Part shown: piece by piece, positions 14,797 through 63,692 of the stretch
Numbering within the stretch: position 1 is the first letter of the stretch
Layout: each line of letters opens with the position of its first letter
Virus record (IMG/VR): IMGVR_UViG_3300037245_001837
Span: 10,396 to 74,395 of that record
Reading direction: 5' to 3' (one strand)
DNA length: 64,000 nt
Source: a virus
Program-made: the position numbers and the translations under genes
The notes under the pieces: model-generated
Told to the model about the DNA's origin: nothing
Databases searched by the model: none
The model's input: only the letters and a program-made list of their open reading frames with translations

Positions 14797-15864
14797 CAAA
14801 CTAAAATTAAAAAGTAGTTATGGCGATATATGTAGGCAATAAAAAAATTAATGAGATCAAGTCAATTTCAGTTGTTCACGACGTACTGGAAGAAATTTTA
14901 ATGAGTGAAGCTGAATTCCTTGAGGATAGACCTGAATTTTGGACAGATGAACAAAAGGAACTTTACGACTTATTGAACACCTTAAATCAAAGGGTTATAG
15001 AAAAGGCAATTGAAATAATTGAATCACGAAAACAGTAGTTATGACAAAGGACGAATTAATCACAAAGCAGCAACTCCAGATAGAAGAGTATAAAAAAACT
15101 ATCGAATCTAACAACGAGCTAAAGAAAAAGATAATAAGTAAATTCTATAGTATAGGACAACCATTAAACGACAACATATTAAACATGGATAAAAAGCAAA
15201 TGGCATGGTGTTTTGAAGTAGTGGAATTATCTCAGCAAATAAACCAAAACTAGACGATATGAAACAAGCATTTGTATTTTACGCATGGTTCCAAGGCTCT
15301 AGTGATTTCGAACCTTTTATTGCAAGAGTATTGGATAACACATCGAATCCTAATTCATGGAGAATAGACAACCATGATAAAACCTATATGTTTGCACTAA
15401 AAGAAGCCTACATAAAGGAAGCAACGCATGACGAGATAAATATCCATGTCAATCGTAAATCTAATTAAACAGTAGTTATGTCAAATACTTTCCAAATATG
15501 GCTTATGAGCCAAAAATATTACAGAAAAGAAGGATCATTGCTTTGGTATAGAGATAATTTATTAGTGAAAGCGAAAGAACTTTCTGGAAAATTAAGGGAA
15601 TTTAAAAACATTAAACAGTAGTTATGGAAAACACTAAGAATTACAAAAAAATAGCCAATTACATCAAAAAACAAGGTTATACATGGACTGTTGAAGATGC
15701 AATCGAGTTGTATAAGAAAAAGGAAAATGGGGAGTACATAAGTTATACAGCAAATGATATTGTTGGTCGTTTTCCAGAAGAAATAAAATCACTAATACAG
15801 TAGGTTAAACAGCGATCCTACTATTTAAGAAAATCGCTTAAAACTTAAATAACAAATAAAAATT

Positions 15865-54728: not shown

Positions 54729-55109
54729 ATGGAAAAAGAATATCTACATAAAAAAGTAATAAAAGTACCGTTATACAAAGGTTTATTAGTTTTAATATTT
54801 TCTAATTCAGTAGAAAAAGTAAAACAAGTTGTTAAGGATTATAATAGAAATAGTGTTTACGCTCATGCTTGGCGTTTCAATTATAAAGGAAAAGAAGGAA
54901 ATGCCATAATACTCAACTTTAATAATGATGAGAAATTAACTCATGGTACTATTGCTCACGAAGCTTACCACATAGCTAATTTCATAGCGGATTCAAGAGG
55001 TTTAATACCAGATCACATTAATGATGAGCCAATAGCTTATTTGATAACTTGGATAACAAATGAGGTTTATAAATTTATGAATAAAAATAATTTCAAAATA
55101 GAAAAATAA
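54729..55109 (+). CDS. Small HExxH metallopeptidase-like protein
   Basis: TIAHEAYH...NDEPIAYLITWI. Confidence 0.75.
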   Translation: MEKEYLHKKVIKVPLYKGLLVLIFSNSVEKVKQVVKDYNRNSVYAHAWRFNYKGKEGNAIILNFNNDEKLTHGTIAHEAYHIANFIADSRGLIPDHINDEPIAYLITWITNEVYKFMNKNNFKIEK

Positions 55110-57756: not shown

Positions 57757-57786
57757 AAAAACCCTCTAATCATCAGAGGGTTTTTT
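57757..57786. terminator. Bidirectional terminator
   Basis: AAAAACCCTCT-aatcatc-AGAGGGTTTTT at convergent junction. Confidence 0.75.
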
Positions 57787-58191
57787 CATTTTAGGATTGT
57801 AAAGCTTTATAATATACATGGGATTAAGAATATAATAATCTTTGAAAGGTGTTTTTAAAAGTAATTCAAGGTCTAAAAATTTCCTTCTGGTTTTATAATA
57901 ACTTCGCTCACTACATAAATCTGAATAAGTACCATATCTCAAAAACAACCCACCACTTTCAGCAGGATTTCTACCACTTTTTACTCCAGTTAAAATACGT
58001 TCCCATATTCTGTAATCAACAATACCAAATTCCTGTTGCTTAATATCAGTTAATAGTATCGAATGTTTGAAATATCCACGTAGGCTTTTATAATACGAGA
58101 AACTTACACCATTTAGACTTGAGCTTCGTATAATTTCTCTATAATATTTTTCTACCCAAGCAGGTAGTAACTCATCTTTATCTAAAATCAC
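57766..58191 (-). CDS. RepL-like winged-helix protein
   Basis: SERSYYKTRRKFLDLELL...YYILNP HTH-wing pattern. Confidence 0.5.
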   Translation of the reverse strand: MILDKDELLPAWVEKYYREIIRSSSLNGVSFSYYKSLRGYFKHSILLTDIKQQEFGIVDYRIWERILTGVKSGRNPAESGGLFLRYGTYSDLCSERSYYKTRRKFLDLELLLKTPFKDYYILNPMYIIKLYNPKMKKPSDD

Positions 58192-58529
58192 GATGGAACT
58201 ATTTTAGTAACATTATCTTTTATAATATTTTTTTTATCGAAACCTCTAGTCAATTGAAGGAAGCTTCTACCAACTGATTTAATAGTCCATAATCTAGGAT
58301 CACCTTCAATATGAACCTGCATACCCTTCTCAAAATTCAATTCATCATGAGCATTGATTTTAGGTTTTAATTCCTGTTGAGGTTTTCGTTTACGCTTTTC
58401 TGGTGCAGGTCTAATACCCCTAGAAGTACAAACGCTATTTACTAAAGCGTGAGTACATCCAACAATTATATGAATTGAATTAAATTTGATGTTACCTATA
58501 CAGGCTTTTATTTTTTCTGATTTAGTCAT
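58188..58529 (-). CDS. Hypothetical protein
   Basis: ORF track. Confidence 0.65.
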   Translation of the reverse strand: MTKSEKIKACIGNIKFNSIHIIVGCTHALVNSVCTSRGIRPAPEKRKRKPQQELKPKINAHDELNFEKGMQVHIEGDPRLWTIKSVGRSFLQLTRGFDKKNIIKDNVTKIVPS

Positions 58530-58905
58530 TTAATGTTTTCTCAAATTCTTTTTTCATTTCGTGTATTCTATCAACAATCCATGCCAATAAATAACATTCA
58601 GGCTCGTCATTATGTCTATCCAGTTTGTGCCGTATTGTAATAAATATGTTATTTACAAGATGTTTCGATTCGTGTGCTATTAGTCCTGCTTCAGGACATC
58701 CTTTTTCGTTAGCATAAAAAACAATATATAAATGGTCTTTATGATTGAAAACTGCACCTCCAAAGTCAGAAAGAATACCACTTGCCTCTGAGTCTTTAAA
58801 ATATTCTTCTGCCTCTTCTGGATTTTCGTAAATCACACAAGTAAATTCTATTTGGTAAAGAGGCGTTTCAAATTTTTTTATTTTCATGGTTTGTTTTGTC
58901 TTCAT
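58522..58905 (-). CDS. Small HExxH metallopeptidase-like protein (paralogue of 54729..55109)
   Basis: LIAHESKH...NDEPECYLLAWI. Confidence 0.75.
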   Translation of the reverse strand: MKTKQTMKIKKFETPLYQIEFTCVIYENPEEAEEYFKDSEASGILSDFGGAVFNHKDHLYIVFYANEKGCPEAGLIAHESKHLVNNIFITIRHKLDRHNDEPECYLLAWIVDRIHEMKKEFEKTLND

Positions 58906-58926
58906 GTACTGTAGGTTTTAGACTAA

Positions 58927-59473
58927 CTAATTGGAACTGTACCAGTTAAAAAATTCTACACCTGAAGAGAATTCAGACCAATTTATATGAATATTTAAAA
59001 ATAACACAGTTAAAATTACTGATTTATATTCAAATTTAATAAGTAAGCCTAATTGCCAGTATGCGTATATCGAAAATATATAAGGGTATCCCATAATTAT
59101 TTTATTATTTTGTTATATTCATCTTTATCGATTAGCAATAAAATTGGTATTCTATCTCCATTAATCACTTTCATAAGTTCATTTTCAGGTACACCAATTG
59201 ACACTTTACCACCACCTTTAACCTTATCAGCAGAAACAAGACTTGTGCAAACCCCCAAAAGCTCTGTTCCGTTTTTGTCATCAGCAACAGTTAAGTCATC
59301 AAGTTTTTGAAATATCCTTTTTTTCATTATTTTGAGGTTTCAGGATTAGACTCTTTACAATCTTGGTCATTTTTACATTTACACATATTTTTCTTGCCTT
59401 TTAAACAAGTTTCATATAAGTAATCTTCTGAGTTAAATGAGCCTTGAAGTATCTTTGTAGTTGGGTATTCCAT
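58927..59473 (-). CDS. Three small reverse-strand genes (59327..59473, 59097..59327, 58927..59094)
   Basis: Abutting ORFs of 48, 76 and 55 aa with coupled stops/starts. Confidence 0.55.
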
Positions 59474-59732
59474 TATTTATCCATTTTAAAGTTTCTATTA
59501 TTAAAAAAAGTATCGAAGGGTGAAGCGGTTTATGTCCTGTCGCTTTTAGGTATCCCGCAATTCTGTGTTTAATGTACAATCCACACAGCGCAACATTTTC
59601 ACCCTTCCATACTCCTATTTCCATCATTTCTATTATATCGTGTATTAGATAAAATAGAGTGTTATTTATGCTGCATCTCAACAGCACTACAAACATAATG
59701 AAAAAATGCATACCAAATACAAAACATAGCAT

Positions 59733-60782
59733 AAAAGTGTATCCTGTGTGCAGTAAAAAAAAGAGTTAACTTTCTAATAAACAGTATCTTATCTATCAAA
59801 TACACCTAATCTATATTAATACGTAAGTATATAAAACTATGATACTCACATACCAATACTCATTATAAGAGCTTCTAAGAGACTTAATTTATTCTAACAG
59901 TACAATATGTCTTTTATAGTATATATTCCAAAAGAGTATAGGTTCTGCTATTCAGGAAGCTTATTTGTACGCATTGTTCCTGTCAGTTTTTTAATAGTTT
60001 CGATTCAAGTGTGTATTAGAGGTTAGTAGTAGTAATATGCGTGTATAATCCAAGAGGGAAGATGCAAATCTAAAAGGCACACCCCTGTTGTTTGAATTTT
60101 ATACCTGAAATGTTTTTGAACTTTTGTATGTGGTGTGTTGTTGTACTTGATTTTATTATACTACTATCTTAATGCAGGAGTGAGAGAATAAAAGTAATAG
60201 CATAGTGTACTAATTGATTAGGGTAAAACACTTATGTACGTATTTCGTTGGTTGTGGTGCATTCTCCTGAGCTTGTACGGTACATTGTACTGCTAAGTTT
60301 CATATACTCGCTTAAATTGGCAGTATAGATAACAATTATTATACTATTTGTACTTTATTGTTATGAATATGTATGTTTTGGGGTTAAGTACCTTATAAAA
60401 GAAAAGAAAAGCATTGTTATTGTTAGCCTATGTTATGAGGTATTAATCTATGTTGTATTTAATTGTTCATATAGTTGTGTGGTGTTTGGTGTAGAATTGT
60501 TAGTTGTGTTGTTTTACTGGGGTTAGGTGATTGATGTACTTTAGTAATGTATTGATCTTTTTAGGTATGATCTAAGTATATTAACACTCTTTTGAATTGA
60601 AGTATTTTATGTTATTGTTGTAAGTCCTTTGTTTGTGTGGTTGCAGCTCATTATATATTTTATACTTTTATTAGTATTTATAGTTATATTAGATATAATA
60701 GTTGTATATTTACTATGTAGTAAGGAAATGGAAATATTTACTACAAAGTCTAACTTAATAAAAACATTTAATACATAATATT
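59733..60782. other. Large non-coding divergence zone (candidate genome end/packaging or control region)
   Basis: No ORF of 60 aa or more; switch to G/T-rich + strand; GTAC cluster; promoter-like TATATTTA at 60705. Confidence 0.6.
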
Positions 60783-61119
60783 ATGAACGTAAACAAAGCA
60801 ACCGCAATAGTTACAATCTTAAGTATATCTTTATTTGTTATCCTATTGTCAAATTTCACATTTGATGAGGCTACGACAAAAATTTTAAATAACATATTAG
60901 AAACCTCAACAGATATAGCAATCCCTGTTATATTCGTAATACTATTTATATTCCTTTACGTTTCTATAATGGGAACAGGAAAAAACACCTCTAAATAAAA
61001 TCACTATGAAAACATTACTATTAAAATACTTGAACATCATACTTTGTACATGGGCAGTTTTATTCATTGCATTGGCGATTATCGGACTTATACAAAATAC
61101 TAACACGTTAACTTATTAA
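60783..61119 (+). CDS. Two small membrane proteins (60783..60998, 61006..61119)
   Basis: Strongly hydrophobic segments; first genes after promoter. Confidence 0.6.
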
Positions 61120-61135
61120 TTTAAAACTTTATACG

Positions 61136-61432
61136 ATGAAAAATTTAAACAGTTTACAAAAAGCAATGTTAAAAGCTCTATTATTATTAGTTTGTTTATT
61201 CGCTATCACAGCAGCCACAGCGCAAACAGAGTATAAAATACAAGGGAATGAGATTGTAAAAGTACAGGACAGCACCAAAGCCAAAGCGCAACCAGTTAAA
61301 ACGGGATTGATCCACAAAATAAAAAATGTTTCTTATCCTGTTTTTAAAAGTGTTCGAGGTTCTTATTTTATTTTAAGAACATCCAAAAAAACAGGAAAGC
61401 AGTACAAACAATATTTAAAAATTTCTAAATAA
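61136..61432 (+). CDS. Secreted basic protein
   Basis: Signal peptide ending ATA-Q; YPVFKS.RGSYFILRTSKKTGK.YKQYL. Confidence 0.75.
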   Translation: MKNLNSLQKAMLKALLLLVCLFAITAATAQTEYKIQGNEIVKVQDSTKAKAQPVKTGLIHKIKNVSYPVFKSVRGSYFILRTSKKTGKQYKQYLKISK

Positions 61433-61439
61433 TAGTATT

Positions 61440-61748
61440 ATGAAAACAGCAACTATAAAAATATTACTTTATTCTATTTCAGAACTACAGGAGCAACCAA
61501 AGGATATAGCTATACAGGAACACGAAAATTTTTTAGTGTCTCAGGGCATGGAAATTGAAAACGAAGAAGGAAAACTTGAAAATATACCGTACAACCCAAC
61601 AAAGGAAGAAATTATTGAAAGTATAGAAATTAACGATTATTTATTTTTTAAAAATGGAGACATGGCTAACTGTACTACTTTTGTAGGCAATCATCCAAGA
61701 GCAGGTAAAACAGTATTAAACTTTAGAGGTTCAGAGTACGAAATTTAA
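61440..61748 (+). CDS. Conserved phage early protein
   Basis: LYSISEL...KDIAI...IIESIEINDYLF..NG motif. Confidence 0.65.
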   Translation: MKTATIKILLYSISELQEQPKDIAIQEHENFLVSQGMEIENEEGKLENIPYNPTKEEIIESIEINDYLFFKNGDMANCTTFVGNHPRAGKTVLNFRGSEYEI

Positions 61749-61760
61749 AATTATTAAAAT

Positions 61761-61835
61761 AATCGATTGAGCGATTTAAAAAAGGTTTTTAAGCTCAAAG
61801 CGTTGGACAGGTTTTTTATTCCTGTTCAGGTAAAC
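61761..61835 (+). ncRNA. Pistol self-cleaving ribozyme
   Basis: P1 AATCG/CGATT, pseudoknot TTGAG/CTCAA, AAA linker, P2 GTTT/AAAC, TTAAG, AGCG, P3 TGGACAGG/CCTGTTCA, G-G|T cleavage site. Confidence 0.88.
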
Positions 61836-61850
61836 ACAAAAATATATATT

Positions 61851-62360
61851 ATGTTCAAATTAGATGTTATTTATTATAAGGAAAATGCAAAGGTTATAAA
61901 ATTAGATCATAATTGCAAAACTGAAAACGGAATTACACCAGAGGAACAATTTAAAATCGTTGAAATTATAGGAGACTACGAACAACTAAAAATCGAAAAC
62001 CAATACCAACAACAATATATAATAAATTCTAACCAGATACAGGAGCCAACACAAAAAGAAAGGTTTTTTATTGAATGGGAAAATGTTACACTTATTAAAA
62101 TATTTGAAACGAAAGTAATTGACAACCGAACAAAAGAAAATGATTATATAATTTTTAGTATTGCTATTGATGAAGAAAAGGAAAATTTTACAGCTCAACA
62201 CGTAGGATTGACAAAAGAAGAAGAGCAGAGCAATAAAATATCGTTTAAAAGTATTGATATTGATTTTGATTTTAGTATTGACGAACACCTGCAAGAATTA
62301 CACGAAGAATGCCAAAACGCAATTTTACAAAGTGATATTTTTACACTTGCAGAAGATTAA
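61851..62360 (+). CDS. Hypothetical protein (true start probably ATG 61851, not TTG 61767)
   Basis: Upstream part of the track ORF is occupied by the pistol ribozyme; A-rich leader before ATG. Confidence 0.7.
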   Translation: MFKLDVIYYKENAKVIKLDHNCKTENGITPEEQFKIVEIIGDYEQLKIENQYQQQYIINSNQIQEPTQKERFFIEWENVTLIKIFETKVIDNRTKENDYIIFSIAIDEEKENFTAQHVGLTKEEEQSNKISFKSIDIDFDFSIDEHLQELHEECQNAILQSDIFTLAED

Positions 62361-62397
62361 AAAGAAATTATAAAAACAACATCTAAATATATATATC

Positions 62398-63057
62398 ATG
62401 AAAACATTAAACCATAGAGAACCAAAAACAATCACAAACGACATACAAACCTTTTTAAAAGATTATAAATTTATAAAAAAGGAGTTTTTAAACGATCCTA
62501 AATATTTGGAGTTAAAAAAAGAACTACACGAAAGCCAAAACGCATATAAATTTAATGCAATGTATTTATTTATAGAGGCTCAAAACATTGTTAACAATCA
62601 TTTAAACAAATTACAGCCAGAATATGAAAAAATAATAAATAATATTTTAGGTCAAAAATTTGAAAATATGGATTGTAGCCGTAACCATAAATTAAAAAAT
62701 ATTTTTGATCATATAGAAGGTGTAAAAACAAAAGAGCTTAAAAATTATAGTTACAGGATAACAACCTCAACAGCCAGAAGCTATAATAATTTTATTTTAA
62801 CGGTTGATGTTTATATATGGAATGGATCAAATAACGCACGATACAGCGATACAAAATATATAGCAAAATTTGAGAATCAAACCAGTTTTTGCGGATTTTA
62901 TGAGGCACACAAATTTGAGACTTTTAATGTAAAAACAGAATTAAAAAAGCTGAAAAAGTACGAAGCCGAAAAAAAGAAATTTGAAGAGCTTAAAAGCAAA
63001 CTAAATAATCCTTTTATGAGCCAATTTTTATTTAATTTTAATAGAGACCAATTTTAA
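62398..63057 (+). CDS. Hypothetical protein
   Basis: ORF track. Confidence 0.7.
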   Translation: MKTLNHREPKTITNDIQTFLKDYKFIKKEFLNDPKYLELKKELHESQNAYKFNAMYLFIEAQNIVNNHLNKLQPEYEKIINNILGQKFENMDCSRNHKLKNIFDHIEGVKTKELKNYSYRITTSTARSYNNFILTVDVYIWNGSNNARYSDTKYIAKFENQTSFCGFYEAHKFETFNVKTELKKLKKYEAEKKKFEELKSKLNNPFMSQFLFNFNRDQF

Positions 63058-63059
63058 AA

Positions 63060-63401
63060 ATGAAAGAGACAGCCAACACACAAACCGAAAACACAAGATT
63101 TACCGATTATATGAATAAATCATTAAAATTTAGAACTCAATTAAATAAATACATGAGTTCCAGAGGTGAAGATTTAAGCATAAAAGTAAGCGTTTTTAAT
63201 TTACTTGATAAAGTAGATCATAAAAGCGAAAAAAACCAAGAATTTAGAAACGAGTTTTTTAAATGGTTAAGCAATGCAAAAGGATACAGCACAATAAAAT
63301 TAAGAGAATTTTGCAAAATCGTTGACGTTGACTACTGGCGAAGCTTAAAAGAATCTAATGTTATAGATGTTTTTGATTCGTGCAGTTGCTTAAATAGCTA
63401 A
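63060..63401 (+). CDS. Hypothetical protein
   Basis: ORF track. Confidence 0.65.
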   Translation: MKETANTQTENTRFTDYMNKSLKFRTQLNKYMSSRGEDLSIKVSVFNLLDKVDHKSEKNQEFRNEFFKWLSNAKGYSTIKLREFCKIVDVDYWRSLKESNVIDVFDSCSCLNS

Positions 63402-63468
63402 AAACCAACACAAAAAAACAAGAAAAAGCAATTTTGCAGCAAAACACCAAAAAGCCAACATTATGAAA

Positions 63469-63555
63469 TAGTTAAAAAAATATCGAAATAGCCAATTAAC
63501 AACTGGCTATCGTGTAAAACGTGTTGAAATTTGCACCTGATGAGCAACACAACTA
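63469..63555 (+). ncRNA. Type II hammerhead ribozyme with 1-bp stem II and pseudoknot
   Basis: C-GAAA, stem III TAGCCA/TGGCTA, ATC cleavage triplet, stem I GTGTAAA/TTTGCAC, CTGATGA-G, loop I GTGTTG pairs with 3' CAACAC. Confidence 0.9.
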
Positions 63556-63572
63556 ATTTAAAAAAATATATC

Positions 63573-63692
63573 ATGAAAGATTTACAAATATTAAAACAGT
63601 TATTAAACGGGCATCATTTAGAACCTAAAGAAATAGAACAGGCAAAGAAGGTTTTAAACAGATTAAATATTGAATTAAAAAACAGGTTATAA
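63573..63692 (+). CDS. Small hypothetical protein (39 aa)
   Basis: MKDLQILKQLLNGHHLE..., downstream of hammerhead. Confidence 0.6.
   Translation: MKDLQILKQLLNGHHLEPKEIEQAKKVLNRLNIELKNRL

Follow-up and report, generated by a model that had tools for sequence, protein, structure and literature searches.

A canonical, very probably active pistol ribozyme between two genes of a marine-sediment phage

Near the right end of a tailed-phage genome, within a run of small genes on the + strand, a mechanical gene track begins an open reading frame at a TTG codon that lies inside what a reading of the bare sequence had proposed to be a pistol self-cleaving ribozyme. The locus raises the question of whether these 75 nucleotides are indeed such a ribozyme, where the gene downstream of them starts, and what a cut at this point would do to the message. 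The window analysed here, a stretch of 64,000 nucleotides, comprises bases 10396-74395 of a 74,395-bp IMG/VR virus record that is rated complete, has a 127-bp exact terminal repeat and a G+C content of ~30%, and encodes a large terminase, a portal and a virion structural protein. The single public sequencing run containing DNA of this phage is a marine sediment metagenome, possibly the sample of origin, and no RNA run was listed with its sequence among the public sequencing runs. At the DNA level its cultured relatives are Cellulophaga phages only, by way of one gene (62398-63057), which is common to phages phi4:1 and phi17:2 with 66.6% nucleotide identity; no relatives of this gene were found at any locus in viral contigs, and the phi4:1 genome does not carry a pistol anywhere.

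Identity and anatomy of the pistol ribozyme

The whole window was searched on both strands with all 4227 Rfam families, the Infernal comparison with the Rfam pistol model being the check that the sequence-only reading had itself suggested. The Pistol family (RF02679) matched 61761-61835 (+) with 58.1 bits, its gathering score being 34.5, over the full length of the model (positions 1-68 of 68), with no non-standard pairs flagged and an E-value of 5.5e-8 that refers to the entire window, both strands and all families. Pistol was the only one of the families to exceed its own gathering score within the window, and a search of the full 74,395-bp record with the Pistol model returned the same single match. 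The same model produced 0 matches in 14 control genomes, and blastn with the ribozyme produced 0 matches among cultured phages. No extra copies and no permuted or P1-less variants were detected in the window or the whole genome, where the exact core was found once, and looser matches to the core motif in the window were at chance level. A separate region, 15160-15324 (-), gave a near-threshold match to the Listeria sRNA rli49 (38.5 bits versus 40, E 0.003), which is probably due to chance in AT-rich DNA.

The elements of the ribozyme are the following.

61761-61835 (+): pistol self-cleaving ribozyme, full length, 75 nt (RF02679)
61761-61765 / 61772-61776 (+): P1 hairpin, AATCG / CGATT, five contiguous pairs, loop ATTGAG
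61767-61772 (+): 5' strand of the pseudoknot, TTGAGC, pairing with GCTCAA at 61793-61798, 6/6 Watson-Crick
61777-61784 (+): A-rich linker TAAAAAAG, 8 nt, with a one-base insertion relative to the Rfam consensus
61785-61788 / 61832-61835 (+): P2, GTTT / AAAC, 4/4 pairs
61789-61803 (+): conserved core TTAAGCTCAAAGCGT, in agreement with the upper-case Rfam consensus UUAgGC...GAGCGU
61803-61811 / 61821-61829 (+): P3 hairpin, 9 bp including two G-U pairs, 9-nt loop

When the sequence was read again, every pistol element that had been proposed from the letters alone was found in the position assigned to it. In the Rfam register P1 has 4 bp, with G65 and C72 (61765 and 61772) assigned to the loop, and this register implies an additional C61772-G61793 pair that lengthens the pairing of the loop (TTGAG, 61767-71) with CTCAA (61794-98) to 6 bp. 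The pseudoknot lies outside the scoring of the covariance model, and its 6/6 pairing constitutes independent support for the identity of the element; compensatory variants of it occur in other viral pistols (CAGGGC/GCCCTG, CTGAGC/GCTCAG and CTAAGT/GCTTAG). The core contains TTAAG (61789-93), the 3' strand of the pseudoknot (GCTCAA, 61793-98) and the catalytic AGCG(U) (61799-61803), and its catalytic part, TTAAGC...AAGCGT, is intact. P3 is made up of 61804-11 paired with 61821-28 plus a U61803-G61829 wobble, and it is present in the minimum-free-energy fold too. The GGT of the proposal spans 61829-31, and the two-base GU junction between P3 and P2 (G61830-U61831) has the conserved length.

An alignment of 24 pistols, the one in the window and 23 other viral ones, contained exactly ten invariant columns, all of them retained here (A61781, T61790, A61791, G61793, C61794, A61799, G61800, C61801, G61802 and T61803). 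Nine of the ten fall inside the core and the tenth, A61781, in the linker; most of the aligned pistols had been retrieved through a 15-mer that itself covers these nine, and the upper-case Rfam consensus agrees with the invariant core columns. As the MAFFT alignment was ragged at its 3' end, helices were counted per sequence by script. Linkers of 8 nt ending in G, like the one here, were present in 6 of the 22 other viral pistols parsed in the same descriptor run. By sequence and structure, 61761-61835 is confirmed as a canonical pistol ribozyme, and it is very probably catalytically active.

The downstream start codon and the predicted cut

The surroundings of the ribozyme are as follows.

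61440-61748 (+): upstream gene, 102 aa, function unknown, no family match; its stop lies 12 nt before the ribozyme
61830-61831 (+): predicted cleavage site between G61830 and U61831, from the GU junction in the Rfam alignment and mapping in other pistols
61831-61850 (+): leader of the 3' product, 20 nt, A/U-rich, with A at -3 and at -11 to -13
61851-62360 (+): downstream gene, 169 aa, orphan, with ATG 61851 as preferred start

The ribozyme occupies the 102-nt gap between the stop at 61748 and ATG 61851, which lies 15 nt past its 3' end; since the other gaps in the same + strand gene run measure 2-37 nt, this gap is essentially the ribozyme. Pfam and PHROG searches with the flanking proteins returned no match, and two neighbouring genes match PHROGs of unknown function.

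Among 72 trusted starts of the genome, a Shine-Dalgarno-like motif was seen in one, whereas 54 carried A at -3 and 42-58 carried it at positions -11 to -14. A Shine-Dalgarno-free, A-rich start pattern has been described for Flavobacterium johnsoniae and Bacteroidetes (Baez 2019, PMC6847099), and because the start-site signature of the phage matches this pattern its host is probably a member of Bacteroidota.

Several features distinguish ATG 61851 from TTG 61767. Of 77 + strand ORFs that do not overlap and reach 80 aa or more, 72 have ATG as the earliest start codon available, and the downstream frame contains no ATG besides 61851, the 169-aa protein having no further methionine. With a codon-usage log-odds score trained on 65 genes, the 28 codons from 61767 to 61850 scored -0.8, lower than all but 0.6% of the windows taken in frame from real coding sequence (mean 10.0, sd 4.5), while six consecutive windows after 61851 scored 6.1-10.7. 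ATG 61851 is preceded by A at -3, -11, -12 and -13, like other starts of the genome, and TTG 61767 has C at -3; a start-context matrix separated the two weakly (-1.30 for ATG versus -2.68 for TTG), both being under the trusted-start mean of 4.0. The form starting at 61851 is also the version found in a 5.8-billion-protein collection and in the ESM Atlas. The downstream ORF had no homologues in viral contigs, the protein collection returned only the window's own 169-aa form, and the ORF showed neither a Pfam nor a PHROG family nor a usable feature match in the ESM Atlas; in consequence its start cannot be fixed by comparison. We consider it very likely that the true start of the 169-aa gene is ATG 61851. 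The earlier claim that the TTG start is spurious is thus supported, short of proof, by four lines of evidence (ATG prevalence, codon usage, the -3/-11 context and the 169-aa database form).

Pistol cleavage has been mapped within the GU junction between P3 and P2, whose length is strictly conserved (Harris 2015, PMC4604425), and proceeds by attack of the 2'-oxygen of the G on the adjacent phosphate, which yields a 2',3'-cyclic phosphate and a 5'-OH (PMC4604425). Following this GU-junction rule, the cut here is predicted to fall at 61830/61831, exactly where the sequence-only reading had put it, and the leader of 20 nt that it had counted is correct (61831-61850). Over its first 70 nt, the predicted 3' product has hardly any structure (-1.2 kcal/mol, with 199 of 200 shuffles folding at least equally well), as is expected of start regions in this phylum. 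We also considered that cleavage might unmask the start site and rejected it, as folding of the intact RNA is predicted to leave the region around the start unpaired even before the cut; cleavage would not be needed to expose the start, which weakens that functional version.

Other viral pistols and the proposed role

The pistol class of self-cleaving ribozymes is reportedly owed to Weinberg et al. in 2015. Several hundred examples were described that year, often near bacteriophage-related genes and also in environmental DNA, and a pistol from Alistipes putredinis (Bacteroidetes) was shown to cleave (PMC4604425). The copy in the window shares with the class (RF02679) the order of its elements, the four helices including the P1-loop pseudoknot, the core, the GU junction and the habitat next to phage genes. 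Structurally it differs only by a linker one base over the consensus, a difference also common to other viral pistols, and its setting is an uncultured marine-sediment phage with Bacteroidota-type start sites.

The core 15-mer was present in 61 IMG/VR stretches, about half of them with a matching P1 loop, and Rfam confirmed 27 non-redundant pistols in those loci at 39-76 bits, with two or three in several loci. When these 27 were tabulated together with that of the window, 19 of the 28 were followed, no farther than 50 nt downstream, by an ORF of 40 aa or more that opens with ATG, and for most of them the preceding stop codon stood 0-55 nt ahead of the ribozyme. The intergenic, co-oriented placement of the window pistol is typical of these copies. 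The upstream and downstream gaps are of similar size, so that the short distance to the start codon may owe as much to genome compaction as to function. IMG/VR pistols such as those of L017, L037, L056 and L060 have the same core 15-mer and pseudoknot sequence as the copy in the window and likewise lie in intergenic gaps, with an ATG 19-28 nt past the ribozyme 3' end and AT-rich leaders without a Shine-Dalgarno motif. In contrast, the flanking genes of the IMG/VR pistol contigs are unrelated to those of the window, no relatives of the window's flanking genes having been found, and several of the contigs carry two or three pistols versus one here.

Some of these loci showed further features. 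Two or three Rfam-passing pistols lie within a few kb of each other at L029:2110-4229, L030:5254-7199 and L004:8636-9052, as well as in L055 and L057, and L024 contains a skipping-rope RNA. Short pistol matches of 46-56 nt and 39-40 bits were seen at L029:3224-3269 (-), L012:355-410 (+) and L042:8183-8238 (+); P3 or the 3' part looks truncated or replaced in them, and such copies may be variants or damaged.

For the majority of self-cleaving ribozymes, no biological role has been assigned (PMC8782182). The explanation that we favour, with a probability of roughly 0.85 for the whole of it, is that an active intergenic pistol cuts a multi-gene message ahead of a gene that starts at ATG 61851, in a phage of a probable Bacteroidota host. 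In a multi-gene transcript, the RNA would fold into P1, the 6-bp pseudoknot, P2 and P3. Internal phosphoester transfer would then sever it at G61830|U61831, either while the transcript is being made or shortly afterwards. Of the 75 nt of the ribozyme, 70 would remain as a compact body at the 3' end of the upstream message, which would terminate in a 2',3'-cyclic phosphate. The downstream message would have its 5'-OH at position -20, so that 20 nt of unstructured, A-rich leader would precede ATG 61851; TTG 61767 is presumably an artefact of the longest-ORF rule. As to purpose, we favour the view that the cut would uncouple the stability, decay or translation of cistrons that lie side by side on one transcript. 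We infer that the ribozyme is catalytically active, that it is transcribed together with its neighbours, and that its role, the cutting of a polycistronic early transcript, serves this purpose.

TAnnTTTG is the consensus of the Bacteroidetes promoter motif. Scans of promoters (sigma-70 type and this motif) and of terminators yielded counts at chance level, so that the transcription unit is not assignable and co-transcription with the upstream genes is assumed. Two features of this part of the genome were noted besides. An ORF-free, G/T-rich stretch of 820 nt (59806-60628) separates divergent blocks, one on the - strand (57766-59732) and the other being the small genes on the + strand; it had no Rfam match at E<=2 and could contain promoters, an origin or an RNA of unknown type. 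Moreover, a motif of ~32 nt (..TCTAAATA..N..ATGAAAACA) recurs at three gene junctions (60983-61014, 61417-61448 and 62375-62406), where it takes in the stop of the first gene and the start of the second with 72-78% identity, the ribozyme-bearing junction being without it.

Other explanations of the locus were weighed against the one that we favour. That the resemblance to a pistol arose by chance in AT-rich DNA has only the low G+C content in its favour, and is refuted by the Rfam search: the E-value of 5.5e-8 over the window and all families, the perfect pairing of a pseudoknot that the model does not score and the 0 matches in control genomes place the resemblance above chance, and the exact core was found once. 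We give this reading practically no credence. An improbable but more serious reading is that the element is a pistol by descent that is catalytically dead, being either a relic or an RNA whose only remaining use is as a structured element. The linker exceeding the Rfam consensus by one base would fit with it, as would the single copy here compared with two or three in several other viral loci; however, linkers of 8 nt are also found in other Rfam-passing viral pistols, the helices are undisrupted, the conserved core bases are unchanged, and a decaying element at 30% G+C would be expected to lose pairs.

Somewhat less probable than the dead ribozyme is the possibility that TTG 61767 is the true start, which would put the ribozyme within the coding sequence of a 197-aa protein. 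The mechanical ORF list does give 61767-62360, and the downstream frame is open from 61758, that is, from 93 nt upstream of ATG 61851; at such a base composition the chance of 31 open codons is estimated at ~7%. Against it stand the four lines of evidence given above for the ATG, counting the 169-aa form in two protein collections. Moreover, cleavage would part a start codon at 61767 from the body of its own gene, and at the other viral loci a stop usually closes the downstream frame within the ribozyme or shortly after it.

The reading of an active pistol ahead of ATG 61851 has as its practical yield the correction of one gene start, and it illustrates that a gene track built on the longest ORF can swallow a ribozyme. 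It adds a co-oriented intergenic pistol before a Shine-Dalgarno-less start in a probable Bacteroidota phage and, together with many similar viral copies, supports, without proving it, the processing of polycistronic phage messages by pistols. The class itself, its association with phages and its occurrence in Bacteroidetes have been known since 2015, and the locus opens no new question in this respect.

A candidate hammerhead downstream of the pistol

A second ribozyme candidate lies 1.65 kb downstream of the pistol on the same strand, and three genes are found between the two predicted cuts.

63469-63555 (+): candidate type II hammerhead, below the Rfam cut-off, predicted cut after C63511
61851-62360, 62398-63057 and 63060-63401 (+): genes between the predicted cuts

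The Hammerhead_II family (RF02276) aligned over its full length to 63481-63553 (+) with 26.1 bits, which falls short of its gathering score of 37 (E 0.0026), and the match arose only in a 341-nt search, the candidate being absent from the whole-window and 4.3-kb Rfam searches at permissive E-values. Its conserved core is intact (CTGATGA at 63537-43 and CGAAA at 63484-88). Stem III has 7 bp as defined by the descriptor, with an A15.1-U16.1 pair plus 63489-94 / 63504-09, after which C63511 occupies position 17, a non-G; stem I also has 7 bp (63512-18 / 63530-36). Stem II consists of the single pair G63544-C63484, with C-U and A-A at the next positions, and thus lacks the closed helix of the family. 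Loop I (GTGTTG) is complementary over 6 bp to CAACAC (63545-50), which follows directly after the core and stem II. The hammerhead descriptor found only three other matches in ~643 kb, all of them in pistol-bearing viral loci and on the strand of the pistols, with different 5-6 nt complements between loop I and the tail. One of these three passes the Rfam cut-off; in its locus (L028), a pistol lies 350 nt upstream of the Hammerhead_II.

Compared with the type II hammerheads near phage genes (RF02276; PMC8782182), the candidate has the same core, closed stems I and III, a pseudoknot from loop I to the 3' tail and co-occurrence with another ribozyme class, and it differs in scoring below the Rfam cut-off and in having a stem II of one pair.

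We regard as tentative, at somewhat less than even odds, the reading that pistol and hammerhead bracket a cassette and would release an RNA of 1,681 nt (61831-63511) with three genes, a 5'-OH and a 2',3'-cyclic phosphate, ends that could give it a separate fate, for example altered decay or RtcB-type ligation. Such a reading extends the main explanation and does not exclude it. The full-length Hammerhead_II alignment on the same strand, with its intact core, 7-bp stems I and III and 6-nt complement between loop I and tail, argues for it, as does the location of the three other descriptor hammerheads, each of which shares its viral locus and its strand with pistols; associations of ribozyme classes, both among themselves and with phage genes, have been published (PMC4604425; PMC8782182). 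On the other side, the score is 26.1 against 37 and the candidate is missing from the larger searches, and a stem II of one pair could render the hammerhead inactive. The stronger form, in which the pistol and a hammerhead nearly devoid of stem II excise the 61831-63511 RNA and its ends set this RNA apart inside a Bacteroidota host, for instance by sparing it from decay that depends on the 5' end or by letting an RtcB-type ligase ligate or circularise it, appears unlikely to us. If it were true, phages could use ribozyme pairs to package gene cassettes at the RNA level without any protein.

In the mechanical ORF list, a frame at 63531-63692 with a TTG start overlaps the hammerhead candidate, and an ATG follows at 63573; this TTG may be a mis-called start of the same kind as that at 61767. 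Elsewhere in the window, two look-alike proteins of ~126 aa are encoded on opposite strands, at 54729-55109 (+) and 58522-58905 (-). Both contain an HExxH motif and one of them has a weak Astacin match below the cut-off, and the two products may be paralogous mini-metallopeptidases.
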